Under the pieces are notes generated by a model. That model searched no databases. It worked only from the letters and a program-made list of their open reading frames with translations, and was not told the origin of the DNA. This document shows, in pieces, positions 39,910-58,609 of a stretch of 64,000 nucleotides of DNA (position 1 is its first letter; each line of letters starts with the position of its first letter). The position numbers and the translations under genes were made by a program. The DNA is from an uncultured Chloroflexia bacterium (lineage in GTDB: Bacteria > Chloroflexota > Anaerolineae > JAAYZQ01): NCBI GenBank assembly GCA_963700285.1, contig CAVOXA010000010.1:1888001-1952000 (forward strand). Reading direction: 5' to 3'.

Positions 39910-41007
39910 TCACAAGATCTCCAGAATCGCGGGCCGGCTGTGGGTCCGTCCCTCCGCCTCAACTTCCAACATCGGCCAGCCCTCGATCTCTGTGATGACT
40001 CTATAGCCAGCCTCGCCGACCAGAATCGTATCCTCCGACTTTGTGCCCGTGATCGATGGATTCCAGGCATAGGCCTGCCCGGCAAACACAAGGTCGGTCG
40101 AGCCGGGTGTGGCCACATACTCACGCGGCTCGTAAGCGGCTGGACCGCCCTGGTGATGCAACTGCCATTCATCCGGGAAGCCGGCCGCGGCGTAGGCCAC
40201 CATCGCCTCCTGAAAGACCTCGCCCAGGCTCCGCCCTGGACGGGAGGCGGCAAGGAATACAGCATCTATTTGGGCCACGGCCTCTGCCTTGCGCCTTAGC
40301 TCATCGGGTAGAGGGCCAAAGTGTACCAGCCGCGTCACCGAGGCCACCAGCCCCCACTGCCGCGCGCAGAGCACCAGCATGGCATAGCGCTCTAACTCCT
40401 TACCGGTGGGCAAGGGGTGCCGGTAATTGTAGATACGCTGGTCGGTGGCGATGAGGTTCACTGTCACCTGCACTCCGTGCTTTTCGCCCTCGCAGGCCAG
40501 TAGGCTGGCGATCTCATATTCGGTCTGGCCGGGGCATATAACCCGCACCGCGCTGTCCATGGCCTCAGCGCAGAGCCGGCCCACTGTGCGAAAGCGATCG
40601 CCTTCCTCCGCGGTCAAGTTGGCTCGCAATCGGGCCAGTTCGTCCGAGAGATCCGTAGCACCAGCGTAGGGCCCATCAGCACCCAATCTGAGCCCCTGGG
40701 TCCGTTGGGCCACTGCCGCCTGCGGCTCGTACCAGGGCCCGACACATAGCTCCCATCCCTGGGCTGCCAGGCCCTCTTCTTGCTCCAACCGCGGCGCCTC
40801 GATGTTGTTGGTGATCACATACCTGCCGGCAGGCGTGATAAGCAGCGATGCCTCGCCGGTGCTCGAAGCCGTGTGCACGTAGGATGCCCGGCCACAGGTG
40901 GCCCAGGCGAAGCTGCTTACCCGCTGCAAGAGCAGGGCATCAAGGCCGCGCTCTGCCAGCAAGGCCTGGATGCGTTCTTGTTTTCCCTCGAATTCAGTCA
41001 TGGGCAT
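39910..41007 (-). CDS. M24 (pita-bread fold) hydrolase, creatinase/prolidase-like
   Basis: YRHPLPT, LHHQGG, AWNPSITGTKSEDT. Confidence 0.8.
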   Translation of the reverse strand: MPMTEFEGKQERIQALLAERGLDALLLQRVSSFAWATCGRASYVHTASSTGEASLLITPAGRYVITNNIEAPRLEQEEGLAAQGWELCVGPWYEPQAAVAQRTQGLRLGADGPYAGATDLSDELARLRANLTAEEGDRFRTVGRLCAEAMDSAVRVICPGQTEYEIASLLACEGEKHGVQVTVNLIATDQRIYNYRHPLPTGKELERYAMLVLCARQWGLVASVTRLVHFGPLPDELRRKAEAVAQIDAVFLAASRPGRSLGEVFQEAMVAYAAAGFPDEWQLHHQGGPAAYEPREYVATPGSTDLVFAGQAYAWNPSITGTKSEDTILVGEAGYRVITEIEGWPMLEVEAEGRTHSRPAILEIL

Positions 41008-41031
41008 ACTCCTTGCGCCGGGCCCACACGC

Positions 41032-42447
41032 TCAGCATGTAGGCGCGTGATAGTAGACATCCCAGCCCATGTATTTGGCCAGCGCCTCATTCACGGCAGC
41101 CGCCACCTGCGAGCGGTTCATGGCTACGTGGTGCTCGTAGCCGTTTTCACAGATGTGCTTCAGCAACCCCTGGAATTCGGGTATCTCGATGACGCCAAAG
41201 CCGCCAAACGTATCCAGCGGGTCGTCGGTGATCCGTCCCTCACCCAGGTAGACACGGATGGCACCCCGAGCGTCGTCCGTCGACACGCGGCAGTAGCTGA
41301 ATGGCCCGCTCTTCACCCGCCCTACCACCGTGCCGTAGGTGTTCTCCTTGCCCACTGACCCGGCGATGATGTCCTGGTAGGACATCTCGGTTTCCTCAAA
41401 AAAGTCCTTGGGTAAGTTGCTACAGTGAAACATCACGCCCTTGTTGGGATCGTCGCCATAGTTATTGTTCCAGTCCAGCAGAGCGCTGGGCCTGTCCGAG
41501 GCGAGGGCCATGGCGTACATGCCTATCGCGCCGGTGATGTCGGTCTCGCAGGCGCTGGGCCTCAGTGTGTTGCTCAGCATGCTCATCACCGTGCAGGGCA
41601 CGATACCAAAATACTCCTCGATGGCAGTCCAGCACTGGAACGCCGTGGCTACCAGTTCATTTTCGTCCATCCATCGCTCCACCACCAGAGCGAATTTGGC
41701 CATTTTCATCAACGCCCCGGCCGGTATGCTCTGCGTCGGGACGTAGTCCTTGATCGCTTTGAGCTTTTCCTGTACCTCGGGATCATCGTCGGCCAGCTTG
41801 CCGACCCGGCCAAAGGCATCCGACAGGTCCAGGGAATCGACACTGATGCCGGCCCGCTCCAGGAGTTTCTCGCTAAAGCGCACGGTGATGAACGCCGCCG
41901 GGCGGGCGCCGAGCATACCAAACTTGGCTCCCCGCAGGCCCCGCACAACCCGGCAGGTACCGGCAAACTGGCGTAGATCCTGACGAAAACTCTCCGAGTC
42001 CGGCGCAACGGTGTGCAGGCTTGTCAGGGTGTAGGGGATGTCGTACTGCCACAGGCTGTTGCACAGTGACATCTTGCCGCAGAAACTGTCCCGCCGGTTG
42101 GCCAGCGTCATTTTGCCCACCTCGTCGGGAAAGGCCTGGACCAACACCGGCACGTCCAATCCCGACAAACGGACAGCATTGGCCGCGCCCCTTTCATCAC
42201 CAAAGTTGGGCAGGGTGATCAGGATGCCATCAATCTTTTGGCCATGCTCCTTGAACAGTGCAGCGCACTTTTTCGCATCTTCCAGTGTCTCCACCGAACC
42301 AAAGGGCGTGTCCTCAATACCCAGAAACACTGCCCCGATGCCTTCTTTTTCCAGCACGCGCAGGACCTCCGCGCGCCCAGTCTCACAAAGGTGGTCGGGG
42401 AAGAAACCCCGGTTGGCGACGATGACACCCAATGTTGTCTTGCTCAT
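41032..42447 (-). CDS. L-fucose/L-arabinose isomerase family protein
   Basis: PNFGDE, RRDSFCGK, QCW, ACETD, FHCSN, EHHVA. Confidence 0.85.
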   Translation of the reverse strand: MSKTTLGVIVANRGFFPDHLCETGRAEVLRVLEKEGIGAVFLGIEDTPFGSVETLEDAKKCAALFKEHGQKIDGILITLPNFGDERGAANAVRLSGLDVPVLVQAFPDEVGKMTLANRRDSFCGKMSLCNSLWQYDIPYTLTSLHTVAPDSESFRQDLRQFAGTCRVVRGLRGAKFGMLGARPAAFITVRFSEKLLERAGISVDSLDLSDAFGRVGKLADDDPEVQEKLKAIKDYVPTQSIPAGALMKMAKFALVVERWMDENELVATAFQCWTAIEEYFGIVPCTVMSMLSNTLRPSACETDITGAIGMYAMALASDRPSALLDWNNNYGDDPNKGVMFHCSNLPKDFFEETEMSYQDIIAGSVGKENTYGTVVGRVKSGPFSYCRVSTDDARGAIRVYLGEGRITDDPLDTFGGFGVIEIPEFQGLLKHICENGYEHHVAMNRSQVAAAVNEALAKYMGWDVYYHAPTC

Positions 42448-42533
42448 ATCTTGCCTACCTCCTTGCGTTTCTCATGGGATGATAGACTGCCATTGTGTTC
42501 TCTGTGCGAACGATGGCAATCTGGTCCGATAGT

Positions 42534-43844
42534 CTACAGCCTCTCGGCCTCTTCGCGGGCGATTTGCACCCACCGGACCACCCGTCTGGGATCCTTGCCA
42601 ATGGTGTGATTGTCCTTCATGATCACTTCTACCCGGCAGTCACGGGTAGGGCGCAGCGCATCGCGCAACTGTTTCCGGACCTCCTTCTCATCAAAGTAAC
42701 TCACAGCCAGCGGCGTGGGGCTGGGCTTGATGGACATGATGAAGCGATCCTCCATCATGGCGGCCAGGTCGGGGATGTTGGCCCAGGGCGAGACAGAAAC
42801 ACGCCGCAGGCGAGGAATATCCTTGATGTACTCCCAGCGCTTGTCCACCGGCTCGCAGCAACCATAGCAATTCAGGCCAAAGCGTTCCAGGATAGGGATC
42901 TGGTAGGGCAGAATAGACTCGGCAAACATCTTGGGTGAGACGCCAATGGTCTCCTGGCTCTCGCCAAAACCCCACATGTCGATGGTGCGTACTCTGCCGT
43001 CAAAATCCGACTGGGGAAGCTCGTCGCTCCAGCCGAAACCACCCGAGCCCACATAAGTGCCATCGTTGTTGAGGCTCAGCAGTCCATTCTCCTCCAGATA
43101 GTCCAGCTTGGCCAGGTGGCCGTCACGCAGAATCGTCAACAGTTGGTGCACCTGGTCAGGACTGTCCATCAGGTCATACATAAAGTTGGTCAGGCCGCGT
43201 AAATTAATGAGCGTCCAGGTCATGCCCAGCGTCCACCACCAGGCGGTCTGAAGGCGTACCTCCAGCAAATCGCCCAGGGTCTCCTCCGCCAGCTCGACCA
43301 CCCGGGCTGTAGCTTCCCCGTCTACCTCGATAACCGGTGCGTGCAGTTTCTCCAGATCGTCAAAGCTCTTCAGGGGCGCCTCCCAGATATAAGAGCCACC
43401 ATCGTGCCCGCCGATCTTGTTCTCGTGCATGCCCCAGTCGCTCTCGGTGTACACGTGGGGTACAATAAAGCGGGGCAACACCACCCGATCGTCACACATT
43501 TCCGCACCCCAGAAGATCTCCTTGCGCAGGGTCATCTCCCAGCGCAGGGCCAGATCCCCCTCACACTCTAACTGGTCAAGGGTTATGATCTCGTTCCAGC
43601 CGTTCTCCGGGTCACAGAAAATGACCGGACGCGTGGGCTCCAGGGCATTAAGCTTGTACCATAGCTTGCGTTTCTCCTGCTCCACGGGACGCGCGGCCAG
43701 CTCGGCTACTTGAGCCGCCAGCCGGCGCAGTACTTGCCGGTCAGTGGGGCTGATCCTCAAGTCAGTGGCTACCTCGCCCATTGTGCTCAGCGTAGCCGCT
43801 GTTTGATCAAGCAACCTCTTTTTGACATCCGTATCAGCCATCAT
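42534..43844 (-). CDS. UroD/MtaA-like TIM-barrel protein of unknown function
   Basis: LRGLTNFMYDL, VSPKMFAE, YGCCEP, SVSPW. Confidence 0.65.
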   Translation of the reverse strand: MMADTDVKKRLLDQTAATLSTMGEVATDLRISPTDRQVLRRLAAQVAELAARPVEQEKRKLWYKLNALEPTRPVIFCDPENGWNEIITLDQLECEGDLALRWEMTLRKEIFWGAEMCDDRVVLPRFIVPHVYTESDWGMHENKIGGHDGGSYIWEAPLKSFDDLEKLHAPVIEVDGEATARVVELAEETLGDLLEVRLQTAWWWTLGMTWTLINLRGLTNFMYDLMDSPDQVHQLLTILRDGHLAKLDYLEENGLLSLNNDGTYVGSGGFGWSDELPQSDFDGRVRTIDMWGFGESQETIGVSPKMFAESILPYQIPILERFGLNCYGCCEPVDKRWEYIKDIPRLRRVSVSPWANIPDLAAMMEDRFIMSIKPSPTPLAVSYFDEKEVRKQLRDALRPTRDCRVEVIMKDNHTIGKDPRRVVRWVQIAREEAERL

Positions 43845-43865: not shown

Positions 43866-45518
43866 CTATTTTATTACTGCGCCTCGGTCGGCCGGGCCAA
43901 CGAGACGAGAATAAGTCGCCAAGAATCCAGTGGTGACGGCAGGCTCGCGCCGCTTCCAGCTGACCAGCCGGTCTCGGATTTCCTCATCAGAAAGCCGGAC
44001 GTCCAGGCGACGGTTGGGGATGTCAATTTCGATCAGGTCCCCCTCTTGTACAGCAGCCAGCGGCCCCCCGGCGTAAGCCTCTGGGGTTACGTGTCCAATG
44101 CAGGGGCCGCGGGTGGCGCCAGAATAGCGACCGTCGGTGACCATGGCCACCGAATCGCCAAGCCCCATGCCGACCAGCATCGCCGCCGGGATCGACAGCT
44201 CGCGCATGCCCGGGCCGCCTGCTGGCCCCTCGTTGCGGATCACCAGCACGTCGCCGGGTCGGACGCTGCGCGACATGAGCGAGTCACGCACCTCGTCCTC
44301 GCTTTCGAACACCCGGGCGGGTCCCACGTGACGGAGCATCTCGGGGTGTACCGCACTCTGCTTCACCACGGCTCCGCGCGGCGCCAAGTTGCCCTTGAGC
44401 ACTGCAATGCCGCCCTCCAGGGCCAGGGGTTTGTCGAGCGAACGTACCACATCACCATCTGGATCCGGGGCATCTTCCGCAATCTGCCCGATAGTACGGC
44501 CGCCGACGGTGGGTGTGCCGCCATCCAGCAGAGGCGCCAGAACCTTGAGTACAGTGGGAATACCCCCGACCCGATCCAGGTCCACCACAGTATGCTGGGT
44601 CGCGGGTTTGAATTTGGCGATCAGGGGCGTGGTCCGGCTCAGCCGGTCGAAATCGTCGGGGGTCAACTCCAAGCCCGCACAGTCAGCCACTGCCGGCAGG
44701 TGCAAGGTGGCATTGGTTGAGCCTCCCAAAGCCAGACAGACCCGCACCGCATTTTCCAGGGATGGCCGGGTCAACATCTCCTTTGCAGTCCGCCCTTCTC
44801 TCACCAGCGCTACAGCCTGACGGCCACTGGCGCGGCACAACTCAGCCCGGCGGGAGTCAGTGGCTGGCAGCGTGGCGCAGCCCGGCAGTGTGAGGCCCAG
44901 CGCCTCGGCGACACTGGCCATTGTATTGGCCGTACCCATGAAGGCACAGGCCCCTGGGCCGCCACAGGCCAGACACTCGATCTCGTAGAAGGTTTCTTCA
45001 GAGATATGGCCGGCCTTGTAGCGCCCCATGGCCTCCTTGACGTCGCTCAGGACGATGGTCTTGCCCTCGTATTGGGCTGGGGCCATGGGACCCCCTGTGA
45101 CGATCACTGCCGGCAGGTCAATGCGCGCCGCCGCCATAAGCAGGCCGGGGATGATTTTGTCACAAGTACCCAGCATCACCATACCCTCAAAGCGATTGGC
45201 CCCCGCCATCAGTTCCACGCTGGCGGCGATGGCGTCGCGCATGGGCAGGATGTAGTGCATGCCCCGCCCCTGGGCGATGCCGTCACAGGGGGCGACCGTG
45301 TTAAACTCCACGGGCATGCCTCCAGCCTCGTGGACCCCCTCCTTGACCCACTCGGCCAACTGGCGCAAGTGATAGTGTCCCGGATTAACCTCGCTCCAGG
45401 AATTGGCAATACCAATCAATGGTCGCTCAAAATCGGCGTCGCCAAAGCCCATTGCCCGGTACAGCGACCGCGGGTAGGCACCGGCGATTCCCTCAAATAC
45501 ACCCCGTCCTTTTGACAT
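43866..45518 (-). CDS. IlvD/Edd-family dehydratase
   Basis: PCDGIAQG, TCDKIIPG, CAFMGTANTM, GGSTN, GPGMRE, TDGRYSG. True start at MSKGRG. Context favours a sugar-acid substrate. Confidence 0.9.
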   Translation of the reverse strand: MSKGRGVFEGIAGAYPRSLYRAMGFGDADFERPLIGIANSWSEVNPGHYHLRQLAEWVKEGVHEAGGMPVEFNTVAPCDGIAQGRGMHYILPMRDAIAASVELMAGANRFEGMVMLGTCDKIIPGLLMAAARIDLPAVIVTGGPMAPAQYEGKTIVLSDVKEAMGRYKAGHISEETFYEIECLACGGPGACAFMGTANTMASVAEALGLTLPGCATLPATDSRRAELCRASGRQAVALVREGRTAKEMLTRPSLENAVRVCLALGGSTNATLHLPAVADCAGLELTPDDFDRLSRTTPLIAKFKPATQHTVVDLDRVGGIPTVLKVLAPLLDGGTPTVGGRTIGQIAEDAPDPDGDVVRSLDKPLALEGGIAVLKGNLAPRGAVVKQSAVHPEMLRHVGPARVFESEDEVRDSLMSRSVRPGDVLVIRNEGPAGGPGMRELSIPAAMLVGMGLGDSVAMVTDGRYSGATRGPCIGHVTPEAYAGGPLAAVQEGDLIEIDIPNRRLDVRLSDEEIRDRLVSWKRREPAVTTGFLATYSRLVGPADRGAVIK

Positions 45519-45619: not shown

Positions 45620-46009
45620 TTAGTTGAAATAATCTACGTTCATGAGCAGCCCGACGATGACCAGGAACCACAGAAAGGCCACCGCCAGCGCTACAACCGG
45701 TGCGCTGACGATCAACAGGAACCACCGGGCCGCACCCATGGCGGCAAAGACGAGGCCCAGGCCAAAACCGACGATGCTGCCCTTCAAAATGCGCCGGCCA
45801 GCATAGAAAGCTCCAATGGCCACGATCAGGTCGAACAGGCCATAGGCCACCAGACCGACCGTATGGGTCACGATCCAAAACTGATCAAAGCCTTCCGGCC
45901 TAATGACGGCAGCCAGAGCGGAGATCAGCGCAAAGGCGGCCAACACGAACAGCATGATGGCGGCGTAGGTCACCATTCCGGGGCGTTTTCTCTCGAGCCT
46001 GTGGGACAT
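45620..46009 (-). CDS. Small membrane protein
   Basis: RPGMVT followed by four hydrophobic helices; GGAGG RBS. Confidence 0.7.
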   Translation of the reverse strand: MSHRLERKRPGMVTYAAIMLFVLAAFALISALAAVIRPEGFDQFWIVTHTVGLVAYGLFDLIVAIGAFYAGRRILKGSIVGFGLGLVFAAMGAARWFLLIVSAPVVALAVAFLWFLVIVGLLMNVDYFN

Positions 46010-46055: not shown

Positions 46056-46688
46056 TCAGGTCCTCATCCGCTCCTGGAAGGCATGTTGGAGCTGCGGATC
46101 CTCGATAGAGTTGACGTCGATCAGTTCCTTGATGCCAGGGAATTCAACCGCTGGCTTGATGACCCCATCCGGAAGCATAGCAATGATATCGGTAAAAGGC
46201 CTGTGGGTCAAGTCTGATACCCCCTCCAGGGTCTCTCGTGACGCGCGCTGGGACGCTTGTCGGTGAGCCGGATACCCACAACCGCTTTCCACACTGAAGA
46301 GCCTGTCAAAAATGAACTGAAGGTTTACGTCGGCCGCCCAACCGTAGCCCTGGTTCAGCATCAGGGATATGCAGTTCCCACCGTTAATCTGTGTAAAGAG
46401 CCAAGCATCCAGTGAAGTCAGGATGTGGCCACAGAACACGCCCGGATACTGCATCACCGCATTGAGGTAGCCCTGCCCGGTACCACAGCCGCCGATGACA
46501 AAGTCAACGCGTTTCAGGTTCAGCAGGATCGCCGAGATCAACCCGGTGTGAATATAGGTGATTTCCGGCGTGGCACCATTCTTGGTCATTCCGGCATTGA
46601 TCACCTCGTGGCCACGACCCTCAAAAGCCGCCAGGATATCGGCGTTGCGGTCAGCAGCGCTGGTTTCATTGACAACTGCTATCTTCAT
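46056..46688 (-). CDS. RpiB/LacAB-family isomerase (long form)
   Basis: MKIAVVNE, GGCGTGQG, QINGGN, GYGW. Confidence 0.85.
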   Translation of the reverse strand: MKIAVVNETSAADRNADILAAFEGRGHEVINAGMTKNGATPEITYIHTGLISAILLNLKRVDFVIGGCGTGQGYLNAVMQYPGVFCGHILTSLDAWLFTQINGGNCISLMLNQGYGWAADVNLQFIFDRLFSVESGCGYPAHRQASQRASRETLEGVSDLTHRPFTDIIAMLPDGVIKPAVEFPGIKELIDVNSIEDPQLQHAFQERMRT

Positions 46689-46750: not shown

Positions 46751-47701
46751 TTACTTGCGCTCTAGCACGTGTTCGGCTGCGGCGACGACATCGTCCACCG
46801 CCAGACCAAAAGCATCCATCAAAGTCTCCGGGTCACGGGCGGTAAGAGCAAAAGTATCGGCCACCCCCACTCGGACCAGTGGCGTCGGACAGCGCTCGCC
46901 GAGCGCCTCTGCCACTGCTCCTCCGAGCCCACCAATGATCGAATGCTCCTCGGCCGTGACGATGGCTCCGGTTTCCGCGGCTGCTTGACAGATGAGATCC
47001 ACGTCGAGCGGCTTGATGGTATGGATCTCCAACACCCGGGCATTGATCCCCTTCTGGGCCAGTTTTCCGGCAGCCAGCAAGCTTCGGCCGACCATGGCCC
47101 CCGTGGCAACGATGGTCACGTCACCACCGTCCCTCAGGCCGATGCCCTTGCCGATCTCTACCTCAAGCCCCTCATCGTGCACAGGGATCGTCGTTGCGCG
47201 GCTGAGGCGCAGGTAGACCGGCCCATCATATTCGGCGATCACCGGTACCCATTTTCCTGCTTCTACCGTATCAGCCGGCACAATCACCGTCATGTCGGGC
47301 ATCGCCCGCAGGATGGCAATATCTGTGATGGCGTTGTGGGTAGGACCATCCTTAAAGTCCGACAGCCCCGCATAGCCAGCAGCCAGCTTGACATTTGTCC
47401 GGGCGTAGGCCACGCAAGTACGGATCTGTTCTGCGGCCCGCAGGGATAGCAGGGCGGCAAAGGCGTTGGCAAAGGGAATTTTGCCCCCCAGAGCCAGCCC
47501 AACTGCCACGTCCACGAGGCAGGGCTCCGCGATGCCGATATTGTAGAACCGTTCGGGGTAGCGCTGGGCAAAAAAGTGGGCCAGGGTTGAGCTAGAGGTA
47601 TCCGCGTCCAGGACAACGACGTCCGGGTTCACCTCGCCGTATGCCATCAGCGCGCGCCCGTAGCCTTCTCGCATGGGCATGGTCTGAGTAATGGCTGTCA
47701 T
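46751..47701 (-). CDS. Transketolase, C-terminal subunit
   Basis: NIGIAE, RAAEQIR, DGPTH, GPVYLRL, AEEHSIIGGLG. Confidence 0.92.
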   Translation of the reverse strand: MTAITQTMPMREGYGRALMAYGEVNPDVVVLDADTSSSTLAHFFAQRYPERFYNIGIAEPCLVDVAVGLALGGKIPFANAFAALLSLRAAEQIRTCVAYARTNVKLAAGYAGLSDFKDGPTHNAITDIAILRAMPDMTVIVPADTVEAGKWVPVIAEYDGPVYLRLSRATTIPVHDEGLEVEIGKGIGLRDGGDVTIVATGAMVGRSLLAAGKLAQKGINARVLEIHTIKPLDVDLICQAAAETGAIVTAEEHSIIGGLGGAVAEALGERCPTPLVRVGVADTFALTARDPETLMDAFGLAVDDVVAAAEHVLERK

Positions 47702-49892: not shown

Positions 49893-50909
49893 TTACACTC
49901 GGCGCCGGCGCCGGACATAGTCAAAGGTGATGGCTACCAGCAAAACCATATAGATCACGATCCTGTGCCAGTAGGGGTTGATGTTGAGGATGATCATCTC
50001 GTTCTGCAGTACACCGATGAGCATGGAACCGACGATGACGCCCGGAACGCTGCCTTCACCGCCCATCAAGCTCAGCCCGCCCAGGATACAGGCCGCGATA
50101 GCCAGTAGCTCATAGCCTTCGCCGGTACCGGGGTGACCGAGGCTCATGCGGCCAGCCTGGATCATGCCCACGGTCACAGCACAAACCACCGAGACGATGT
50201 AGCAAAGGATGATCCGGGCATCGACGTTGACCCCCGAAAAACGGGCCGCTTCCTTGTTCCCACCGGCGGCATAGATCTGGCGGCCGATGAAGGTATAGCG
50301 CAGCAAATAGTGGGCAAGGACGGCGACAAAAACACAGATGATCACCGGCACGGGAATGATGTCAAAGAGGTAGCCCTGCCCCATGGCGCTAAAGGCGCGC
50401 GGGAGTCCGGTGATGGGGAAAGCGTTGGTCACCACCAAGATGAATCCGCGGGCCACGCCCATGGTCACCAGGGTGATTAGAAAACCATGCATGTTGAGCT
50501 TGGTCACAAAAAGGCCATGGATCATGCCCACGCCCAAACCCAGTGCCAGCGTCATGAGGATAGCGAGCCAGATGGGCAAGCCCATGTTCATCATGAAATA
50601 GGCAGACATGACGCCGCCAAAGCCCACCATAGAACCAACCGACAGGTCGATACCGGCTGTAATAATGGTAAAGCCCACACCGATGGCTGCGATGGCCAGA
50701 ATGCCAACGTCACGAGTCATGATCTTTAGATTGGCCCCTGACATGAGCCGGGGGTTGATGATCGTCCCCACGACCAACAGCAAGATCACGATCAAAAAGA
50801 TTACAAACTCGGTGACACTAAACAGGCCCTTGATGGATTCCCAGATGCCTGGTCGGGCTGCCCTGCTTCGGGGTCCGTTCCCCTTGACGTCCGTCGTTGC
50901 ACTTTCCAT
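49893..50909 (-). CDS. Monosaccharide ABC transporter permease (RbsC-like)
   Basis: GIDLSVGS, GGNKEAARFSG, YELLAIAACILGG. Confidence 0.92.
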   Translation of the reverse strand: MESATTDVKGNGPRSRAARPGIWESIKGLFSVTEFVIFLIVILLLVVGTIINPRLMSGANLKIMTRDVGILAIAAIGVGFTIITAGIDLSVGSMVGFGGVMSAYFMMNMGLPIWLAILMTLALGLGVGMIHGLFVTKLNMHGFLITLVTMGVARGFILVVTNAFPITGLPRAFSAMGQGYLFDIIPVPVIICVFVAVLAHYLLRYTFIGRQIYAAGGNKEAARFSGVNVDARIILCYIVSVVCAVTVGMIQAGRMSLGHPGTGEGYELLAIAACILGGLSLMGGEGSVPGVIVGSMLIGVLQNEMIILNINPYWHRIVIYMVLLVAITFDYVRRRRRV

Positions 50910-50926: not shown

Positions 50927-52471
50927 CTATCCGTGGTGATTTTCGGTCCCGATTTCGGACAATGCTTCCAGTTTTAGGAACTTGGTGGCGGCGGTCATGA
51001 TCTCTTCTTGCGTCGTCCCCTTGGCATCAAACTCGCCTGTGACCCTGCCCTGGCACATGACCACCACTCTATCGCTCATACCCAGGATCTCGGGCATTTC
51101 GGACGAGATCATCAGAATGCCCATACCTTGCTGGGCCAGGCGGCTCATCAGGGCGTGGACCTCGGCCTTGGCGCCCACATCAATGCCCCGAGTGGGCTCG
51201 TCCATGATCAGGATCTTGGGCTCGGTACTCAGCCACTTGGCCAGGACCACTTTTTGTTGGTTGCCGCCGCTCAGATTGCTCACCGTCTGCGACAGGCTGG
51301 GGGTGGCAATCGAAAGAGCCTCCACATAGCGAGCCGCGATATCTGACTCTTTCTTTGTGCTGATGGCTCCCAATAGGTTTGAGATCCGTTGCAGAATTGC
51401 CATGGTAGTGTTCTGCTTGACGTCCATGCTCAAGATCAAGCCGTGCTGTTTGCGATCCTCAGGCACCCAACCGATGCCAAGCTTGACAGCATCGCCGGGA
51501 TGGCCTATGTCGACTTTTTTGCCTTCCACCAATATCTCGCCGCCGGTTAGCCGATCCACGCCGTTGATGAGGCGAGCAACGTCTGTTCGACCAGCGCCCA
51601 CAAGGCCAGCCAGTCCAACAATTTCGCCAGCATGCACCGTAAAGCTCACGTCCCGGACACCCCTGTCACCCGAGAGATTGCGGACCTCGAGAACCGGCTC
51701 CCGGATCTCGGCCTCCTCCTTGGGGAACAACTTGACCTGCCGTCCCACCATGTGGCGGATGATCTTTTCCTCGGTAGCATCAGCCGAGTCCAAGTCGCCC
51801 ACTCGACGGCCATCGCGCATAACCACGATGCGGTCGACTACCTCGAGAACCTCATCCAGGCGGTGGCTTACAAAGACGACCGGCACCCCCTTCTCTTTCA
51901 GGCGCCGCATCAGAGCGAAAAGCGCATCCACCTCTTTGCTGGACAGAGCTGAGGTGGGTTCATCCATCTGGATCAGGCTGGCATTCTGTGCGACAGCCTT
52001 GGCAATCTCTACCATTTGCTGGGCAGCGACAGGCAGCTCTCTGACCGTCGTTTTCCCAGAGATATCGGCGCCCAGGTCGTGCAGAATCGCTTCTGATTCC
52101 CGGTTCATGCGCCGGAAATCCACCATGCCCAGGGCGGGCACGCGAAGAGGTTCCTGGTTGAGGAACACATTCTCAGCAACGGTCAAGTGCGGCACCAGCG
52201 CCAATTCCTGGTAGATGGTACTGATACCCAGCTCCTGAGCCTCGTGGGGCGTTCGCGGTTCAACTTGCTTCCCGTTCAACCAGATCGCGCCATCATCCAA
52301 CTCGTACACGCCCGACACGATCTTGATGAGCGTTGACTTGCCGGCCCCATTCTCGCCGACTAGACCCAGGATCTCCCCCGGATAGACCTCAAAGTCCACG
52401 TCATCCAGAGCCTGGACACCCGGGAAGGCCTTGTAAATCCCTTCCATACGAAGCAAAGGGTCAGTTTCCAT
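50927..52471 (-). CDS. Monosaccharide ABC transporter ATPase (RbsA-like)
   Basis: GENGAGKST, LSGGNQQK, DEPTRGIDVG. Confidence 0.95.
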   Translation of the reverse strand: METDPLLRMEGIYKAFPGVQALDDVDFEVYPGEILGLVGENGAGKSTLIKIVSGVYELDDGAIWLNGKQVEPRTPHEAQELGISTIYQELALVPHLTVAENVFLNQEPLRVPALGMVDFRRMNRESEAILHDLGADISGKTTVRELPVAAQQMVEIAKAVAQNASLIQMDEPTSALSSKEVDALFALMRRLKEKGVPVVFVSHRLDEVLEVVDRIVVMRDGRRVGDLDSADATEEKIIRHMVGRQVKLFPKEEAEIREPVLEVRNLSGDRGVRDVSFTVHAGEIVGLAGLVGAGRTDVARLINGVDRLTGGEILVEGKKVDIGHPGDAVKLGIGWVPEDRKQHGLILSMDVKQNTTMAILQRISNLLGAISTKKESDIAARYVEALSIATPSLSQTVSNLSGGNQQKVVLAKWLSTEPKILIMDEPTRGIDVGAKAEVHALMSRLAQQGMGILMISSEMPEILGMSDRVVVMCQGRVTGEFDAKGTTQEEIMTAATKFLKLEALSEIGTENHHG

Positions 52472-52580: not shown

Positions 52581-53807
52581 CTACTGTGACGGGATACCGA
52601 TGGAGTCCAGGTACTCCTGGTACAAGCCAAAGGTGTCGGCCAGGATCACATCGACGCCGGTGTTCAGGCGAATCTTGCCCTCGTCACCCAGCTCGTCCAG
52701 ATAGGGATCCAGGAGTGCCATCGTCTCTTCCACGCCAAGGATGGTCATGGCGTTCATGACGTAGCCGCTCAGGTAGCCGTAAAAGTACACGCGCTGCCCG
52801 ATCATGGCCTGGACTGCGCCGTCTTCCATGCAGCGCTGCGTTTCCGGCTCGGCGTCAAAGGCCACGATCTTGACCTCGCCTTCCTTGCCCGCCTGTTTGA
52901 CCGCCTGGCAGGCCGCCGGGCCATCGTAGGAGTAGAAGGTGATAAAGCCGGCCAGGTCCTCGTACTTTTGCATGGCCGTCTGGGCGTTGCTCAGGGCAAC
53001 CTCGGGCTTGATGTCGTCCAGGAGCACCTCGACCATCTCCAGGCCGGTGCCTTCCAGCACGTCATTGACTCCGGCGATGCGGTCCTGGGCGTTCTGGGCC
53101 GTGGCATAGCCAACCAGGCCAACCACCTTGCCCTCGCCGATGAGATCCAGAGCCGCCTGGCCCGCCGCACGACCCGCATCGTAGTCGGACATACCGATGT
53201 ACATGGATCGCTCGCTGCCGGTAGCATCCGAGTCGGTGTTGATGACGTGAATGCCCTTGGCCACCGCATCCGCGATGATGTCGTGCGGGGCTTCGCGGTC
53301 AATGGACGAGAAGGTGATGGCATTGTAACCATCGTTTACAAAGGTCTCCAGCATGGTAAGCTGCTGAGAGAGCTTCTCAGCGGCGGTTGGCGCCTGGAAC
53401 ATGATGGGAACATTGATCTCCAACGAGGCGCGCGACGCACCGGTCTGAGCCGCGGTCCAGAAGGGAGCCACGGCATTGGTCAGCAGCACGTACTTGGCCC
53501 CACCAGGAGGCGCCATGCCTTCGGTGGCTGCCTTCAAGACTTCTACTGCTTCGAACAGGTCGTCGGGCTTGTAGGGGTTAGGGGCGCCCGCCTCGGGCGC
53601 GGCCGGAACCTCGACCTCGACGGTCACGACCTTTTCGACCTCTTTCTCGACCTCGACGACCTCGGTCACGATCTTTTCAACCTCTTTTTCGACCTCGACC
53701 ACTACAGTCTCGACCACGACCTGAGGTTCCGGCGCAGCGCCGCAACCGGCCAGCACCAGCGCCAGAATGGCCAACAAACTGACAAGCAAAGCTACTTTGG
53801 TCTTCAC
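52581..53807 (-). CDS. Sugar ABC substrate-binding lipoprotein
   Basis: GTG start after GGAGG, lipobox LAGC, EVEK-repeat linker, RbsB-like domain (PFWT, NTDSD, VAFD). Confidence 0.9.
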   Translation of the reverse strand: MKTKVALLVSLLAILALVLAGCGAAPEPQVVVETVVVEVEKEVEKIVTEVVEVEKEVEKVVTVEVEVPAAPEAGAPNPYKPDDLFEAVEVLKAATEGMAPPGGAKYVLLTNAVAPFWTAAQTGASRASLEINVPIMFQAPTAAEKLSQQLTMLETFVNDGYNAITFSSIDREAPHDIIADAVAKGIHVINTDSDATGSERSMYIGMSDYDAGRAAGQAALDLIGEGKVVGLVGYATAQNAQDRIAGVNDVLEGTGLEMVEVLLDDIKPEVALSNAQTAMQKYEDLAGFITFYSYDGPAACQAVKQAGKEGEVKIVAFDAEPETQRCMEDGAVQAMIGQRVYFYGYLSGYVMNAMTILGVEETMALLDPYLDELGDEGKIRLNTGVDVILADTFGLYQEYLDSIGIPSQ

Positions 53808-54069: not shown

Positions 54070-54852
54070 TCAGCATGAACAAACATAAAAGTCACCCGGA
54101 GCCATGACAACAGGCCGCGCCTTGCTGCCTTCGCTGGTGAGCGCCGCAACGAAATCGGCAGAGTCGGCCGTATTTTCGGCGACCAAACCCCAGTGCATGG
54201 GGATGACCACGGTTGGCTCGACCTCCCTGGTCAATTTGCCCGCTTCCTCCGGCGTCATGTTTCCGTATTGGCCATTGATGCAGACCAACATGATGTCTGG
54301 CTGAAAGGCGCTGGCTGCTTTGAGATCGGGATGGTAGAGCGTGTCGCCAGTATGGTAGACGATGATCCCCTCCAGGTCAAGAACAAAGCCTACTGCGTCC
54401 GGCTGGGGCGCGCCAGCCTCGGACTCGTGGTGGGCAAAGACAGCCGAGACGGGAACACCCGCGATCGTCTGACTCTCGCCCCGGTTGATCTCGACGATGC
54501 GCCCGGCCGGAATCCCCCAATCCCGCATGGCCTGGACGCACAGCGCCGGTCCGGCGATGATGGTATCACTGGCAGCCGCGATGTCGGGGATCGAGTGCGG
54601 ATCCAAATGGTCCTCGTGTGCATGCGTTGCCAGCACCAGGTCCGCCTCTACCTCGCTGGGCGGGAAAGGAATCGGCGAACCCGGCAGGCGCTGCCACGAA
54701 TAGAAATGATCGAGGGAGTCAGAGAGGTAGGGATCCACGTAGACGATCTTGCCCCCGCCCGTCTTGAAGGCAAAGCCCGCTCCCCCCAGCCAGAAAACGG
54801 CCAGGCTGCCGGATGGGACTGAAAGGTCTCGAATACTCTTGGCAAGGGTCAT
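54070..54852 (-). CDS. Metallo-beta-lactamase fold hydrolase (UlaG-like lactonase)
   Basis: FWLGGAG, THAHEDHLD, YHTGDT, IPMHW. Confidence 0.85.
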   Translation of the reverse strand: MTLAKSIRDLSVPSGSLAVFWLGGAGFAFKTGGGKIVYVDPYLSDSLDHFYSWQRLPGSPIPFPPSEVEADLVLATHAHEDHLDPHSIPDIAAASDTIIAGPALCVQAMRDWGIPAGRIVEINRGESQTIAGVPVSAVFAHHESEAGAPQPDAVGFVLDLEGIIVYHTGDTLYHPDLKAASAFQPDIMLVCINGQYGNMTPEEAGKLTREVEPTVVIPMHWGLVAENTADSADFVAALTSEGSKARPVVMAPGDFYVCSC

Positions 54853-54857
54853 CAGAA

Positions 54858-55928
54858 TTACAGTCCTCCCGGAGCCACCAGGATCTTGAGGTTCCCCGCT
54901 CGATCCCTGAGCAACTCCTCCAGTCCTTTCTCGACAATGTCATCCAGGGCAATACGGCCAGTGATGAGCGGTTCGGCATCGATCCGCCCATCGCCCAACA
55001 GTTTGACGGCCGAGGCAAAGTCCTCGTCGTAGACGTGGGAAAATGAGCCGATCAACTCGATCTCATCGCAGACCAATGGGAAAAAGTTGATCGGAACCGG
55101 TTCGTTGGTCAGGCTCAGAACGACGACGCGCCCCCGTTTGCAGGCGAGCTTGGGGGCCAGAGCGATCGTCTCGGCATTGCCGCCTGACTCCAGCACGACG
55201 TCAACCCCACGGCCACCGGTGAGATCCTTGATGGACTGAACGACGTCGACCTCCGCCGGATCGAATACCTGGGCGGCGCCCATCCGGGACGCAAGCTCGC
55301 GGCGGCTGGCCTCGATCTCGATGACGTATACCTCTGAGGCACCGGCCAGGAGAGCCGTCTGCAGGCAGAGCAAACCAATGGTCCCAGCGCCAACCACCGC
55401 CACCGTATCCCCAAACGTTGTTCGTGCCTGGCGATTGGCCCGGATGGCGACCGAAGCCGGTTCGCCCAGCACGGCAACCTCGGACGAAACGCCGGGTGGT
55501 AGGTGGAAGCACATGTAGGTGGGCGCGTTCACATACTCGGCAAAGCCGCCATGGGTCATCAAGCCCAGGATGGCCAGGTTCTCGCACTGGTGTACCAAAT
55601 GGCGCTTGCACCAGTGGCACTCCCCACAGTGGATCAACGTATCGGGCGTGACGACGTCTCCCACCTCAAAGCCGGTGACACCGGGTCCAATCTCGGCTAT
55701 CGTGCCGACGAATTCGTGACCCAGAATCATCGGCGCCTGGACCCCTGTGAGCGGGTTCGGCTCGTCCACCGGGATATAGAGCGGTCCGAAGAGATACTCC
55801 TCCAGGTCGGTGCCGCACAGGCCACACCACTCAACCTTGATCTTGATCTCGCCCTCGCCCGGCGCTGGCGGATCGGGAAACTCTATGACGCGGATGTCGC
55901 GTCGGCCGTACCAGACTGCTGCTTTCAT
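54858..55928 (-). CDS. Zn-dependent polyol/butanediol dehydrogenase family
   Basis: CGTD, GHEF, CGECHWC...C, GAGTIG. Confidence 0.9.
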   Translation of the reverse strand: MKAAVWYGRRDIRVIEFPDPPAPGEGEIKIKVEWCGLCGTDLEEYLFGPLYIPVDEPNPLTGVQAPMILGHEFVGTIAEIGPGVTGFEVGDVVTPDTLIHCGECHWCKRHLVHQCENLAILGLMTHGGFAEYVNAPTYMCFHLPPGVSSEVAVLGEPASVAIRANRQARTTFGDTVAVVGAGTIGLLCLQTALLAGASEVYVIEIEASRRELASRMGAAQVFDPAEVDVVQSIKDLTGGRGVDVVLESGGNAETIALAPKLACKRGRVVVLSLTNEPVPINFFPLVCDEIELIGSFSHVYDEDFASAVKLLGDGRIDAEPLITGRIALDDIVEKGLEELLRDRAGNLKILVAPGGL

Positions 55929-56003: not shown

Positions 56004-57098
56004 TCACACAGGACTCAGAGCCGCGGACAGCCCAAGCTCCGAGCCGCAGGGCACACGGTCCGGGAGCGCAGCAACTGGCCTGCAAGAGTCACGTTCTACC
56101 AGCATAGTGCCAAGACTGTAGGTGCGCGGCTTGTCAGGGGGATGTCCCTCCCTGATCCAGCGCAACAACAGATCCACGGCCAACATTCCCATCTCCTCCA
56201 CAGCGATATCGACCGTGGTGACAGGCGGTTGCCAGAAACTGAGCCATTCGGAATCGTCAAAGGCAACAACGGACATCTCATCGGGAACACGAACACCACG
56301 CCTGGCCAGGGCCGTCATTGTCCCCACCAAAAGGCGGTTGCTGGTGGCAAAGATGGCGGAAGGCCGGGGGGAAAGCGCAAGCAGTTGTTCGGTAGCCTCA
56401 AGGCCATGATCCTTGCTAAAGTCCCCAACCTTGAGCAGTTGGGGATCGATGGCCAGGCCGGCATCCATCATGGCGTGCTTGAAGCCCTGGATCCGATCCG
56501 CACCTGTCGTGGTCTCTGGTGAGCCAACAACCAGGGCAATGCGCTCGTGGCCCAAACCGATGAGGTGCTGGGTTCCCCGATAGGCGCCCCTCAGGTTGTC
56601 AGCCAGTACACAATCTAGCAGATCCGCCTCGCGCTGCCTGTTGATTTCTACAAAGGGAATGCCCTGGCGGACAAAGCGGCGGGTGTGGTCGGAATAGTCA
56701 CCATCGGCTGGCGGCACATAGATGATGCCATCGACTTTCCGTTCCCAGAGAAACTGCAAATAGTCGATATACCGCTCAGTAGATTCCCTCGTAATGCCCA
56801 AGAGCATGATGTAGCCACGCTGCGCGAGATGATGCTCTATCGCCTGAGACACTCCGGTATAGTAGACGTTCAAGATATCAGGAATAATGAGCGCCACCAG
56901 CTTGGATGGCATCCCCCGCAGGCCTCGGGCGCGTGCATCGGGGCGGTAGTCTAATTCCACAATCGCCCCTTCGACGCGCTGGCGGGTCTTTTCCCCGACG
57001 TAGCCGCTGTCATTCAGGACACGGGAAACGGTCGCGGGCGACACCTCAGCGAATCTGGCGATGTCCTTGATAGTCACATGAGACTTGGCTTCTGTCAC
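56004..57098 (-). CDS. LacI-family transcriptional regulator
   Basis: TIKDIARFAEVSPATVSRVLN HTH, VPDEMSVVAFDD. Confidence 0.93.
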   Translation of the reverse strand: MTEAKSHVTIKDIARFAEVSPATVSRVLNDSGYVGEKTRQRVEGAIVELDYRPDARARGLRGMPSKLVALIIPDILNVYYTGVSQAIEHHLAQRGYIMLLGITRESTERYIDYLQFLWERKVDGIIYVPPADGDYSDHTRRFVRQGIPFVEINRQREADLLDCVLADNLRGAYRGTQHLIGLGHERIALVVGSPETTTGADRIQGFKHAMMDAGLAIDPQLLKVGDFSKDHGLEATEQLLALSPRPSAIFATSNRLLVGTMTALARRGVRVPDEMSVVAFDDSEWLSFWQPPVTTVDIAVEEMGMLAVDLLLRWIREGHPPDKPRTYSLGTMLVERDSCRPVAALPDRVPCGSELGLSAALSPV

Positions 57099-57167: not shown

Positions 57168-57213
57168 TGAAAACGATTTCATATATTCTACCATATTTGG
57201 CCAGGGATGTCAA
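57168..57213 (-). promoter_or_regulatory. Promoter with LacI-type operator
   Basis: TTGACA-17-TAGAAT (57213-57185). Near-palindrome TGAAAACGATTTCA at 57168-57181 over the predicted start site. Confidence 0.75.
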
Positions 57214-57255
57214 GTGTCCCTTTTGCACCGCGACGCTGCCCAACAGATCGATTGC

Positions 57256-58488
57256 TTACTGGAGCAAGGGCTCGCGCAGGATGTCGTCCAGAACCAGCGC
57301 TACCGCGCCCAGGACACAGGCATCTGCTCCATGGGCAGCCGTGACCACCTGGACCCCCTGGCGAGCCAGCGCCAGGGCGTGCCGCCGCATCGCCGCATCG
57401 ATGGCTGGTAGCAGAAAAACGCTGGCCAGGCTCAGCGCCCCGCCCAGAACGACCATTTCCGGATTGAAGGCATTGACCAGATTGGCGATGCCTATTCCCA
57501 ACTGGACGCCGACCGCTTGCAGCGCCGCCTTGGCCACAGGATCCCCGTCCTCGGCAGCCTGTACGACGATGCTCACATCCATCGAGCCCAGATCACCGTC
57601 GACAAGGGACCTCATCCGGCTCGGGGTACCGCTCTCAGCGATTAGTCTCTCAACACGCCTCACAATCGCCTGGGGCCCCACCACGGTCTCCCAGCAGCCT
57701 CGCTTGCCACAGCCGCAGGGTTCACCGTCAGGATCGACCGTCATGTGCCCGATCTCGCCCGCATAGCCGCCGCTGCCCCGGAAGAGCTTGCCGTTGAGGA
57801 TGATGCCTCCACCGAGGCCGACACCGGCGCTCAAATAGATGAGACTCCCCACGTCACGGGCCACGCCGAAATAGTACTCACCCAGAGCCGCGGCATTGGC
57901 CTCATTCTCGACAAAGACGGGCAGATTGAACCGTTCAGTGAATATTCCACGCAAGGGCACGTCGTACCACCCCAGGTTCGGGGCGAAGGCGAGGCTACCC
58001 TGACGGGTGTCTACCAGGCCTGGCACGCCCAAGCCAATGCCCAAAGGCCGCAGATCTTTCGCCTGGCCGGCGCCCAGTGCTGCCTGGATAAGAGACGCAG
58101 TACGCTCGACAATGACAGCCTGCAGATCCTGTGGATGCGAAGGTACCCGCTGCAGCCACAGGGTCTGGGCCAGAAAATCCGTAGCGGCCACGCAGATATA
58201 GTCGACGCCGATCTCGACGCCAACGGCAAAGCCGCCGTCGGGGCTGAGCTCCAGCAACATGCCAGGGCGCCCGCGCTCAGAGGGCGCCAAGCCGATCTCG
58301 CGGACGTATTGTTCCTGTAACAGGTCGTTGATGACACTGGAGACGGTACTGCGGTTCAGACCGGTAGCGGCCGAGAGACCCGCGCGCGACAGGGGTCCGC
58401 GCATGCGCAGGCACTCCAGGATATGTGAGGTGTTTAGTTTGCGAACCAGGACCTGATCGGCGGTCCCTGACTGCTCGGCCACGAGCAT
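57256..58488 (-). CDS. ROK-family (XylR-like) repressor
   Basis: SRAGLSAATGLNRSTVS HTH, ENEANAAALGE, GEIGH, CGCGKRGCWE. Confidence 0.92.
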   Translation of the reverse strand: MLVAEQSGTADQVLVRKLNTSHILECLRMRGPLSRAGLSAATGLNRSTVSSVINDLLQEQYVREIGLAPSERGRPGMLLELSPDGGFAVGVEIGVDYICVAATDFLAQTLWLQRVPSHPQDLQAVIVERTASLIQAALGAGQAKDLRPLGIGLGVPGLVDTRQGSLAFAPNLGWYDVPLRGIFTERFNLPVFVENEANAAALGEYYFGVARDVGSLIYLSAGVGLGGGIILNGKLFRGSGGYAGEIGHMTVDPDGEPCGCGKRGCWETVVGPQAIVRRVERLIAESGTPSRMRSLVDGDLGSMDVSIVVQAAEDGDPVAKAALQAVGVQLGIGIANLVNAFNPEMVVLGGALSLASVFLLPAIDAAMRRHALALARQGVQVVTAAHGADACVLGAVALVLDDILREPLLQ

Positions 58489-58553
58489 TTCTCCGGGTTG
58501 CACCGGCTCTTCAGGCCGGTTCTGGTGTCTGGCGGCGGACTGTGGCCCACCGT

Positions 58554-58609
58554 CTTTTGTTTGTTGCAGCGACAAACAAAAGTATAGCATGAATTGCTGA
58601 GCATGTCAA
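58554..58609 (-). promoter_or_regulatory. Promoter with XylR-type operator
   Basis: TTGACA-17-TATACT (58609-58581). 29-bp inverted repeat CTTTTGTTTGTTGC-A-GCGACAAACAAAAG (58554-58582). Confidence 0.75.

Follow-up and report, generated by a model that had tools for sequence, protein, structure and literature searches.

The stretch analysed here, which we call the window, comprises 64,000 nucleotides (C10:1888001-1952000) of a 7.05-Mb, 89% complete genome (G000) of an uncultured Chloroflexia bacterium. Most of the named records nearest to its proteins are from Anaerolineae. Our subject is a gene cluster within it, whose 15 named genes all lie on the minus strand and run from 58488 down to 39910, with intergenic distances of -4 to 262 bases and with families assigned by Pfam and NCBIfam models. 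In order, they encode a ROK and a LacI repressor, a Zn-dependent dehydrogenase (ZnDH), a metallo-hydrolase, a three-gene ABC importer, an Fe-containing alcohol dehydrogenase (Fe-ADH), a split transketolase, an RpiB-family isomerase, an IlvD-family dehydratase, and a tail of UroD-like, fucose-isomerase-like (FucI-like) and M24-family proteins. Every gene named in an earlier note on this DNA is present, on that strand and in the order it gave, and the family models bear out its statement that the cluster includes no sugar kinase or glycosidase; the same scans find no aldolase or sulfonate-exporter family among the cluster genes. A gene absent from that list, for a 129-aa membrane protein (45620..46009, minus strand), lies between the isomerase and dehydratase genes; it has a weak DUF7144 match (28.1 vs 27) and occurs in none of the 80 related loci described below. 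The presence of these genes is in itself no proof that all 15 form one pathway. For the part from lacI to ilvD, we regard as an even call the reading, built on sequence comparison, that its enzymes would break down a sugar or cyclitol bearing no sulfonate, through a sugar acid that is not phosphorylated and with a dedicated split transketolase making xylulose 5-phosphate.

The transketolase is encoded, like all genes below on the minus strand, as an N-terminal, thiamine diphosphate-binding subunit (47698..48540; PF00456) and a C-terminal subunit (46751..47701; PF02779/PF02780), whose genes overlap by 4 bases. The N-terminal subunit keeps four catalytic-type His positions. Published work, cited throughout from excerpts of the papers, describes transketolase His461 as binding the phosphate of the natural substrates (PMC3657141), and gives the head-group motif as RSFHR in phosphate transketolases and RAFDR in sulfofructose transketolases (PMC11659671). 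The window's C-terminal subunit has neither motif; its head-group site is R11-S38-F81-Y110-R168 (RSFYR), with Tyr at the position of the phosphate-binding His. The same RSFYR is found in 42/42 related C subunits covering the full site, a count that leaves out partial and divergent fused subunits. In a background of 150 representatives, 31 have Tyr at the His site and 92 have His, and the genome's own transketolase paralogue at C10:162563 retains His at the H461 position. In a tree built with FastTree, 37 of 43 rows, including the window's, fall in one Tyr clade, five in a second, and one among His enzymes; the two transketolase clades that hold the RSFYR subunits are Tyr-rich. These three placements imply that the pairing of RpiB with a transketolase arose, or was exchanged, more than once. 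A second Tyr-type clade, represented in L066, L069, L072, L081 and L087, has Ala replacing the conserved D469 and lies beside the same RpiB. An engineered R358I/H461S/R520Q transketolase is described as cleaving 5-ketogluconate (PMC12016104).

The RpiB-family gene (46056..46688) encodes a 210-aa isomerase of the long PRK09273/DhuI clade. It scores 194 on the PRK09273 model (cut-off 137), retains the CGTG active-site loop, and reaches 140-149 bits to the long structures 2PPW, 3ONO, 4U8E (147) and 3C5Y and just 22-23 bits to ribose-5-phosphate isomerases. We take 4U8E (gbs1892) to be DhuI. DhuI, a characterised member of this clade, isomerises a non-phosphorylated uronate (PMC12838403). The window's gene is single-copy in its genome, and relatives are uncommon within the class (9 of 251 genomes).

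A scan of GTDB with this RpiB protein identifies 197 relatives, the best 80 of which we analysed as loci. Many of these loci are short contigs, so that the partner counts are lower bounds; unless stated otherwise, they refer to at least 40% identity to our queries. A transketolase subunit occurs in 47 of the 80 loci (49 at E<=1e-8), and IolD-like thiamine enzymes occur in 41, in two clades of 33 and 8. Other frequent partners are Gfo/Idh/MocA proteins in two clades (30 and 11 loci), IclR regulators (25), MMSDH-type dehydrogenases (17) and GPH symporters (15), and there are smaller numbers of AOR (5), BKACE (5, none with a transketolase), IlvD (5) and SauS-like (3) genes. The window's hydrolase is present in two loci and its Fe-ADH in one. 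An FGGY (glycerol-kinase-like) gene is present in four loci, only one of them with a transketolase, and Pfam searches of the unlabelled co-directional neighbours reveal no further kinase or glycosidase. A short-chain dehydrogenase/reductase (SDR) is present in 9 of the 76 RpiB loci mapped. The pairing also has variants: a TIM-barrel isomerase replaces RpiB beside the same transketolase in L139, L150 and L152, and an arabinonate-dehydratase-like IlvD of another clade lies beside the core in L021. Sequence searches of the PDB give nothing specific for the Gfo and IolD-like partners. We considered the IolD-like enzyme as a universal component and rejected it; the five genomes with the window's type of transporter include one full-length orthologue and one contig-end fragment. 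In a spirochaete version of the locus (L058, L059, L067, L070 and L071), RpiB and the IolD-like enzyme are kept, and a cupin, an ADP-forming acyl-CoA ligase and BKACE replace the transketolase. In L077 (10651-13041) and L085, a glycyl radical enzyme directly behind RpiB passes only the general PFL2-3 subfamily cut-off.

The window has a version of this neighbourhood with a dehydrogenase, a hydrolase and a dehydratase. The ZnDH, of the medium-chain type (54858..55928; PF08240/PF00107), has (R,R)-butanediol dehydrogenase (6IE0) as its nearest solved structure, at 234 bits with the next at 188, and IolM as its best NCBIfam model (233 vs a cut-off of 450). The hydrolase (54070..54852; PF13483) has the metallo-beta-lactamase fold and is distantly UlaG-like, scoring 62 on the UlaG model against a cut-off of 306 and 47 bits to the UlaG structure 2WYL. 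The importer is of the monosaccharide CUT2 type and consists of a binding lipoprotein (52581..53807, likely start GTG 53807; PF13407), an ATPase (50927..52471; PF00005, with XylG/RbsA-type models below cut-off) and a permease (49893..50909; PF02653). The best solved relatives of the binding protein, at 180 bits, are 2QVC, 2H3H and 3C6Q, presumably glucose/xylose-binding proteins of Thermotoga. The Fe-ADH (48724..49875; PF00465) has 1,3-propanediol oxidoreductase as its best solved relative (295 bits) and scores 243 on the sulfoacetaldehyde reductase model SarD, which ranks 9th and has a cut-off of 700. The dehydratase of the IlvD/Edd family (43866..45518; PF00920, 400 bits) starts at ATG 45518, not at the start of the 670-aa open reading frame (ORF), and is a second copy; a housekeeping-type ilvD lies at C1:343679 among branched-chain amino-acid genes, as named from their translations.

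A metagenome scan with the dehydratase gives 80 loci, of which 46 are at least 57.5% identical, 33 fall below, and L174 is unscored. Partners of the system are present in 27 of the 46 loci of this IlvD subclade and in 0 of the 33 more distant ones. The series hydrolase, ZnDH, ABC importer, Fe-ADH, transketolase, isomerase and IlvD recurs, whole or in part, in L078, L084, L139, L141, L145, L150, L152 and L214. Its ZnDH, hydrolase, ABC, Fe-ADH, transketolase, RpiB and IlvD proteins are 53-77% identical to those of the window (L084, L078, L141, L145, L150, L139), and the hydrolase and ZnDH recur as a pair in L078, L084, L141, L150 and L214. The hydrolase/ZnDH loci sometimes have an MMSDH, and sometimes the TIM-barrel isomerase in place of RpiB. 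They have no IolD-like gene, whereas other IlvD loci have IolD-like and Gfo genes without the hydrolase/ZnDH pair, and this difference suggests two interchangeable ways of making the acid. We do not count the IlvD subclade as a component of the core itself, a role that we rejected on its presence in 4-5 of 50 core-bearing genomes (those examined out of 78).

Searches of the genome with MMSDH queries find no aldehyde-dehydrogenase match beyond one weak one, which is consistent with Fe-ADH being the aldehyde sink here. The genome has 16 matches resembling aldehyde:ferredoxin oxidoreductase and one resembling an acylating dehydrogenase. At C9:58926-61810 there is an orphan pair of Gfo/Idh/MocA and IolD-like genes, 49% and 77% identical to those of related loci; in other Anaerolineae, the counterparts of this pair precede the two transketolase genes and RpiB. 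The pair may feed the window's core in trans.

In the scheme that we propose, the CUT2 system would import a neutral sugar or cyclitol, the butanediol-dehydrogenase-like enzyme would oxidise a secondary hydroxyl, and the metallo-hydrolase would form the acid by opening a lactone or keto-ring; in most related loci, this step would fall to the IolD-like enzymes. The isomerase would convert the aldehyde-ended (uronate-type) acid to a ketose acid, and the transketolase would cleave the ketose acid once or twice, moving two-carbon ketol units to glyceraldehyde 3-phosphate to give xylulose 5-phosphate. A carboxylate would take the place of the phosphate or sulfonate. Fe-ADH would reduce the leftover small acidic aldehyde here, and relatives would oxidise it with MMSDH-type, SauS-like or AOR enzymes. 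The IlvD paralogue may dehydrate a 2,3-dihydroxy acid to a 2-oxo acid either before or after the cut. Substrate schemes with five carbons (ending in malonate or tartronate semialdehyde), six carbons (ending in malate semialdehyde or 2,4-dioxobutanoate) and seven carbons (two rounds) each fit parts of the neighbourhood. More tentatively, and somewhat short of an even chance, a natural family of Tyr-pocket transketolases together with a uronate-type isomerase would make up a carboxylate counterpart of the sulfoglycolytic transketolase pathway (sulfo-TK), a modular, ATP-saving core of which the window holds the version where dehydrogenase, metallo-hydrolase and IlvD replace the IolD-like enzyme. 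It is a similarly tentative proposal that this core is spread through uncultured Chloroflexota, spirochaetes and Acidobacteriota and takes sugar acids straight to xylulose 5-phosphate. Narrow keyword searches of open-access papers return no paper on such a sugar-acid transketolase route.

The earlier note had read the cluster as a pathway for a sulfonated sugar such as sulfoquinovose (SQ), possibly combining sulfo-TK with the sulfoglycolytic Entner-Doudoroff pathway (sulfo-ED). As excerpted from PMC9594981, PMC11659671 and PMC13219744, sulfo-TK consists of SqvD (PF02952), SqwGH, SqwI (PF02502) and SqwF (PF00465), usually accompanied by a sulfoquinovosidase (YihQ or the NAD+-dependent SqgA), the mutarotase SqvB and an exporter; some sulfo-TK genomes are without both known SQases (PMC13219744), and the orthologues of Faecalicatena and Clostridium sp. 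MSTE9 are 58-68% identical (PMC11659671). In the sulfo-ED pathway of Pseudomonas putida SQ1, the dehydrogenase is an SDR (PF13561), and the lactonase, dehydratase and aldolase belong to PF08450, PF00920 and PF03328, respectively (PMC9594981). Four window enzymes match sulfo-TK at the level of Pfam, which explains how the sulfosugar idea came about. The cluster has no kinase, as in sulfo-TK, and its PF00920 dehydratase agrees with sulfo-ED at family level only, scoring 683 on the ilvD model vs 274 on edd. The SDR and the PF08450 lactonase are absent from the cluster, which has PF08240/PF00107 and PF13483 proteins instead, and no KDSG aldolase (PF03328) is found among its genes. The transketolase has RSFYR and not RAFDR, and the RpiB is of the DhuI clade. 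The specific reading by sulfo-TK and sulfo-ED does not fit. The note's fallback, a terminally substituted unphosphorylated sugar processed by split transketolase and RpiB-type isomerase, fits the comparative evidence.

Our sulfo-TK control is L135, from the spirochaete genome G076, which is inferred to be such a locus and not characterised. YihQ (919 vs a cut-off of 553) and a split transketolase are present in it, together with an RpiB of 157 aa and a gene resembling SQ isomerases (232 bits). Identities between the window and L135 are 41% and 38% for the N- and C-terminal transketolase subunits, 26% for RpiB (over 93 aa) and 23.5% for the FucI-like protein. In the tree, the C subunit of L135 joins two representatives that bear Asp (support 98) and is separate from that of the window. 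As a control it is imperfect: the Ser site has Ala, as in RAFDR, but pairwise alignment puts Ala and not Asp at the His site. The probable sulfo-TK cluster of L135 (7972-18327) comprises YihQ, an SqvD-like isomerase, a GPH symporter, a DASS transporter, the split transketolase and the short RpiB. Its transketolase carries a variant of the published RAFDR, with R-A-F-A-R as head-group site and Asn in place of D469. On the SQ-isomerase model NF048012, the FucI-like protein of the window scores 91 and the genome's best protein 120, against a cut-off of 700. That cut-off is too strict for the sulfo-TK type, so the SqvD test rests on comparison of scores, and the 91 bits, set beside 232-314 in loci with SQ markers, tell against the suggestion that the FucI-like protein is the SQ isomerase. 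The sulfo-TK type of SQ isomerase is described as 32% identical to SftI (PMC11659671); the cut-off misses the 232-bit isomerase of the YihQ-marked locus, and thus under-calls this type, and none of 401 spirochaete-phylum genomes passes it. A search of plasmids for SQ isomerases returns only those of Zymomonas and Chlorohelix. The best YihQ score in the window's genome (89% complete) is 229 vs 553, a cut-off passed by 0 of 14 controls in the genome scan, although L135 scored 919. SqvB (DUF4867) has no match in the genome, while its model is matched in 3 of 50 other genomes. With the Gfo protein of the SQ-like locus L110 as a proxy for SqgA (GH188), the genome's best matches are 22-34% identical over partial lengths, and none is in the cluster.

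The SQ-isomerase-like loci L110, L126, L131 and L134 have CUT1-type transporters, where the window has CUT2. They belong to a recurring type of cluster in metagenome-assembled genomes (MAGs) of Chloroflexota (L109, L110, L112, L126 and L131-L134), with ROK, SQ-isomerase-like (250-314 bits), CUT1 ABC and transaldolase-like genes, along with a UxaA/SuyAB-like lyase, a LarA racemase, and a YeiH exporter or a GH4 glycosidase. These are likely SQ clusters of the sulfo-transaldolase (sulfo-TAL) type, possibly with desulfonation and with GH4 replacing YihQ.

Several observations weigh against the sugar-acid reading, and we consider them together with the alternatives they bear on. Much of the 42/42 agreement on RSFYR reflects shared descent, as 37 of the 43 rows are in one clade, and Tyr also occurs in clades whose neighbour genes are not characterised. 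The phosphate site retains its Arg, Ser and Arg, which the acceptor also requires. This last point would agree with a reading that we consider unlikely, in which an unusual pentose, polyol or branched sugar is phosphorylated by a kinase encoded elsewhere, transketolase and isomerase act on the phosphorylated intermediates, and the cluster is a rearranged xylose-type uptake region. Along the same line, a xylulokinase gene lies 3' of IlvD in four metagenome loci (L148-L151; the one tested passes the XylB cut-off), a few relatives have kinases (four of the 80 loci hold the glycerol-kinase-like gene), tblastn finds 16 FGGY matches in the genome, and the UlaG reference enzyme has a phosphorylated lactone as its substrate. 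The nearest solved relatives of the binding protein bind neutral aldoses, and that protein and the ROK operator presumably resemble those of xylose systems. However, the phosphate-binding His is Tyr in all 42 subunits, the isomerase is of the DhuI clade and far from ribose-5-phosphate isomerases, a kinase related to the FGGY query accompanies just 1 of the 47 transketolase-bearing loci, and the MMSDH, IolD-like and BKACE partners act on free acids. It is also improbable, and more so, that the cluster is an accretion of genes from several unrelated sugar systems with two regulators and an IlvD for branched-chain amino acids. The dehydratase does pass the ordinary ilvD cut-off (683 > 618), there are two promoters for the two regulators, the UroD, FucI, M24 and small membrane genes do not follow the core, and gene content differs even in the closest locus, L136. 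Accretion does not account for the ZnDH-to-IlvD set recurring at 53-77% identity in six loci, for the 27/46 vs 0/33 distribution of partners, or for the separate housekeeping-type ilvD on C1. Two further points against the sugar-acid reading are that the IlvD subclade is found in only 4 of the 50 core-bearing genomes (in a fifth, G062, it is in pieces) and that the window's genome, 89% complete, is without the Gfo/Idh/MocA partner and the MMSDH of the most similar loci.

The remaining points concern sulfonates. A sulfonated sugar or sugar acid other than SQ (or one reached by another entry route), with sulfoacetaldehyde reduced by Fe-ADH in the manner of SqwF, would follow, at the level of families, the logic of sulfo-TK. 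L051, L053 and L082 have SauS-like acylating dehydrogenases near the model's cut-off (561-568 vs 600), in two of these loci directly 3' of the core, and the binding protein of L051 is 57% identical to that of the window. L054 adjoins a cluster of SQ-isomerase-like, transaldolase and UxaA/SuyAB-like genes, and among the 50 core-bearing genomes 11 have a strong SQ-isomerase match (E<=1e-50), four YihQ and three SqvB over the cut-off. Conversely, 39, 46 and 47 of these 50, which are incomplete MAGs, are without the respective match. The cluster has RSFYR, not RAFDR, separates from the sulfo-TK control in the tree, and has no sulfonate-exporter family; MMSDH-type and BKACE partners outnumber SauS-like ones, and SarD is just the 9th-best model for the Fe-ADH. 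We hold the sulfonate alternative to be less probable than a phosphorylated substrate, if less remote than accretion. The hybrid first suggested for this DNA, in which sulfo-TK and sulfo-ED reactions together would break down SQ and the FucI-like protein would act as SqvD, seems to us very improbable. Its attraction is that PF02952, PF02502, PF02779, PF00465 and PF00920 are the families of SqvD, SqwI, SqwGH, SqwF and sulfogluconate (SG) dehydratase, but the identities to the YihQ-marked L135 of 23.5, 26 (93 aa), 41 and 38% compare with 58-68% for true orthologues, the genome shows neither YihQ nor SqvB, the dehydrogenase and lactonase are of the wrong families, and the aldolase is missing.

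The last three genes of the cluster follow a different pattern. They encode a UroD/MtaA-fold accessory protein (42534..43844), a protein of the L-fucose/L-arabinose isomerase family (41032..42447; PF02952) and an M24-family accessory hydrolase (39910..41007; PF00557), and UroD, FucI and M24 are found in 1, 0 and 0 of the 80 RpiB loci. For the UroD-like protein, Pfam gives no match; its Atlas neighbours are named URO-D-like, and its structure model (pLDDT 89) best matches the solved structures of UroD and a Methanosarcina mazei methyltransferase (MtaA fold), while PDB sequence searches give nothing for it or for the FucI-like protein. Its relatives are found in varied sugar loci. In L136, the closest related locus (76-91%), Fe-ADH, IlvD and M24 are present with no UroD or FucI between. 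Close relatives of the FucI-like protein occur in 72 of 251 genomes of the class. Among 20 FucI-like loci, chosen as best matches on long contigs (one without the gene mapped), M24 is nearby in three, ribulokinase in three and an AraD-type epimerase in six, and RpiB or transketolase in none. A lone pair of ribulokinase and AraD genes at C15:146112-148509 of the genome (69% and 77% identical) is likely the partner of the FucI-like protein. This protein likely belongs to a separate, kinase-dependent system, and the UroD-FucI-M24 tail likely came in by shuffling, as a piece of its own. Given these ribulokinase/AraD neighbours and the pair elsewhere in the genome, the description "kinase-free" probably fails for the FucI-like gene; the dependence on a kinase elsewhere, which the earlier note gave as grounds for abandoning its proposal, thus likely applies to this gene alone. 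A second cluster at C10:1045538-1070000 has FucI-like (49%) and M24 (36%) paralogues with sulfatase-like and UroD-like genes, an acetoin-dehydrogenase-like complex and lipoate genes, the names being read from translations.

At the other end of the cluster, the ROK-family protein (57256..58488; PF00480) has an N-terminal helix-turn-helix (HTH) domain and scores 233 on NagC, 198 on Mlc and 220 on the ROK glucokinase model (cut-off 260), the HTH being repressor architecture; the gene is present in one of the 80 RpiB loci. The LacI-family repressor (56004..57098, likely start GTG 57098; PF00356, PF13377) is 46-59% identical to LacI proteins in five related loci. Each gene has a near-consensus sigma-70-type promoter with 11 of 12 consensus matches, TTGACA-17-TATACT for ROK (58581..58609, minus strand) and TTGACA-17-TAGAAT for the lacI operon (57185..57213, minus strand), which suggests that the two start separate transcripts. 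A palindrome at the ROK transcription start (58554..58582; 14-nt arms, 93% complementary) is the likely, predicted ROK operator; even when up to 5 mismatches are tolerated, the genome has just one copy of it. The palindrome resembles what we take to be XylR operators, and a genome scan for XylR-type operators finds no further site. Just behind the lacI promoter is a predicted LacI-type operator-like site (57168..57181), the sole match in the window to the consensus that we assumed (0.10 expected by chance), with three exact matches to the pattern genome-wide. Two sediment RNA runs contained 5-6% of the sampled words, and at least eight pieces of RNA contigs, 151-269 bases long, match the cluster with at most one difference, compared with pieces of only about 30-40 bases for a 5.3-kb phage-like control stretch. 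We do not count these matches as evidence, because the control is shorter and maybe strain-specific and because contigs cannot show transcription.

Around the cluster, a 117-aa membrane gene (39448-39801), weakly similar to PRK09272, the model numbered next to the PRK09273 of RpiB, lies 3' of M24 both here and in L136. Further on, a 933-aa ORF (33936-36737) resembles a fused 2Fe-2S and molybdopterin oxidoreductase subunit when its translation is read by eye. Positions 59000-64000 hold a phage-like remnant with a weak SU10 adaptor match, a probable frameshifted ORF (59000-60268) and, on the opposite strand, a transglutaminase-like gene; a 32-base stretch (63534-63566) matches many unrelated RNA contigs.

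In the excerpts of PMC12016104 and PMC3657141, transketolases acting on unphosphorylated donors are known naturally from sulfoglycolysis and otherwise by engineering of the same His position. If the sugar-acid reading is true, natural sugar-acid transketolases would take transketolase catabolism without a kinase beyond sulfosugars, account for an unannotated gene set that recurs in bacteria from anaerobic sludge, sediment and peat, and supply ready-made biocatalysts. A practical warning also follows: a cluster cannot be identified as sulfoglycolytic from matches to SqwGH, SqwI, SqwF and SqvD at family level. The head-group motif and the RpiB clade do separate sulfo-TK from the window's system.

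Several known systems share parts of this gene set. The D-apiose transketolase pathway uses ApsI, AplK and AptAB, that is, an isomerase, an apulose kinase and a transketolase; judged by family models, the cluster has no kinase, TIM-barrel isomerase or apiose-named NCBIfam match. The myo-inositol pathway consists of IolG, IolE, IolD, IolB, IolC, IolJ and IolA, with an IolG/IolM/IolN variant in Thermotoga. Loci related to the window carry Gfo/Idh/MocA, IolD-like and IolA/MMSDH-type genes around the core, but their IolD-like proteins score below the cut-off (157 and 323 vs 715), as does the window's IolM match (233 vs 450), and the cluster itself is without kinase, aldolase, IolD-like, IolE and MMSDH genes. 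Compared with the oxidative deoxyribonate pathway, as excerpted from bioRxiv 10.1101/205583, the cluster is without BKACE and uses transketolase, RpiB and IlvD. The DhuI-DhuD uronate route shares with the window an isomerase of the DhuI/PRK09273 clade, which acts on a free uronate; the likeness is at clade level only, with about 40% identity to DhuI, and in place of DhuD/KduD, KdgK and KdgA the cluster has a transketolase, with no SDR reductase of the DhuD/KduD type found by Pfam. With sulfo-ED, the window has in common that a dehydratase of the IlvD/Edd family (PF00920) accompanies a dehydrogenase and a hydrolase, but the latter two are a Zn-dependent medium-chain dehydrogenase and a metallo-beta-lactamase fold, and there is no aldolase. 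Sulfo-TK differs in its details, the window having RSFYR, a long DhuI-clade RpiB, a CUT2 importer and a FucI-like gene far from SqvD, without YihQ, SqvB or an exporter, and with relatives that end in MMSDH-type enzymes. It has in common with the window a split transketolase, an RpiB-family isomerase and an Fe-ADH in one kinase-free cluster, and likely the same logic, in which ketol units are moved to glyceraldehyde 3-phosphate and the leftover aldehyde is reduced. To judge by its genes, the cluster is likely a kinase-free sugar-acid counterpart of sulfo-TK.

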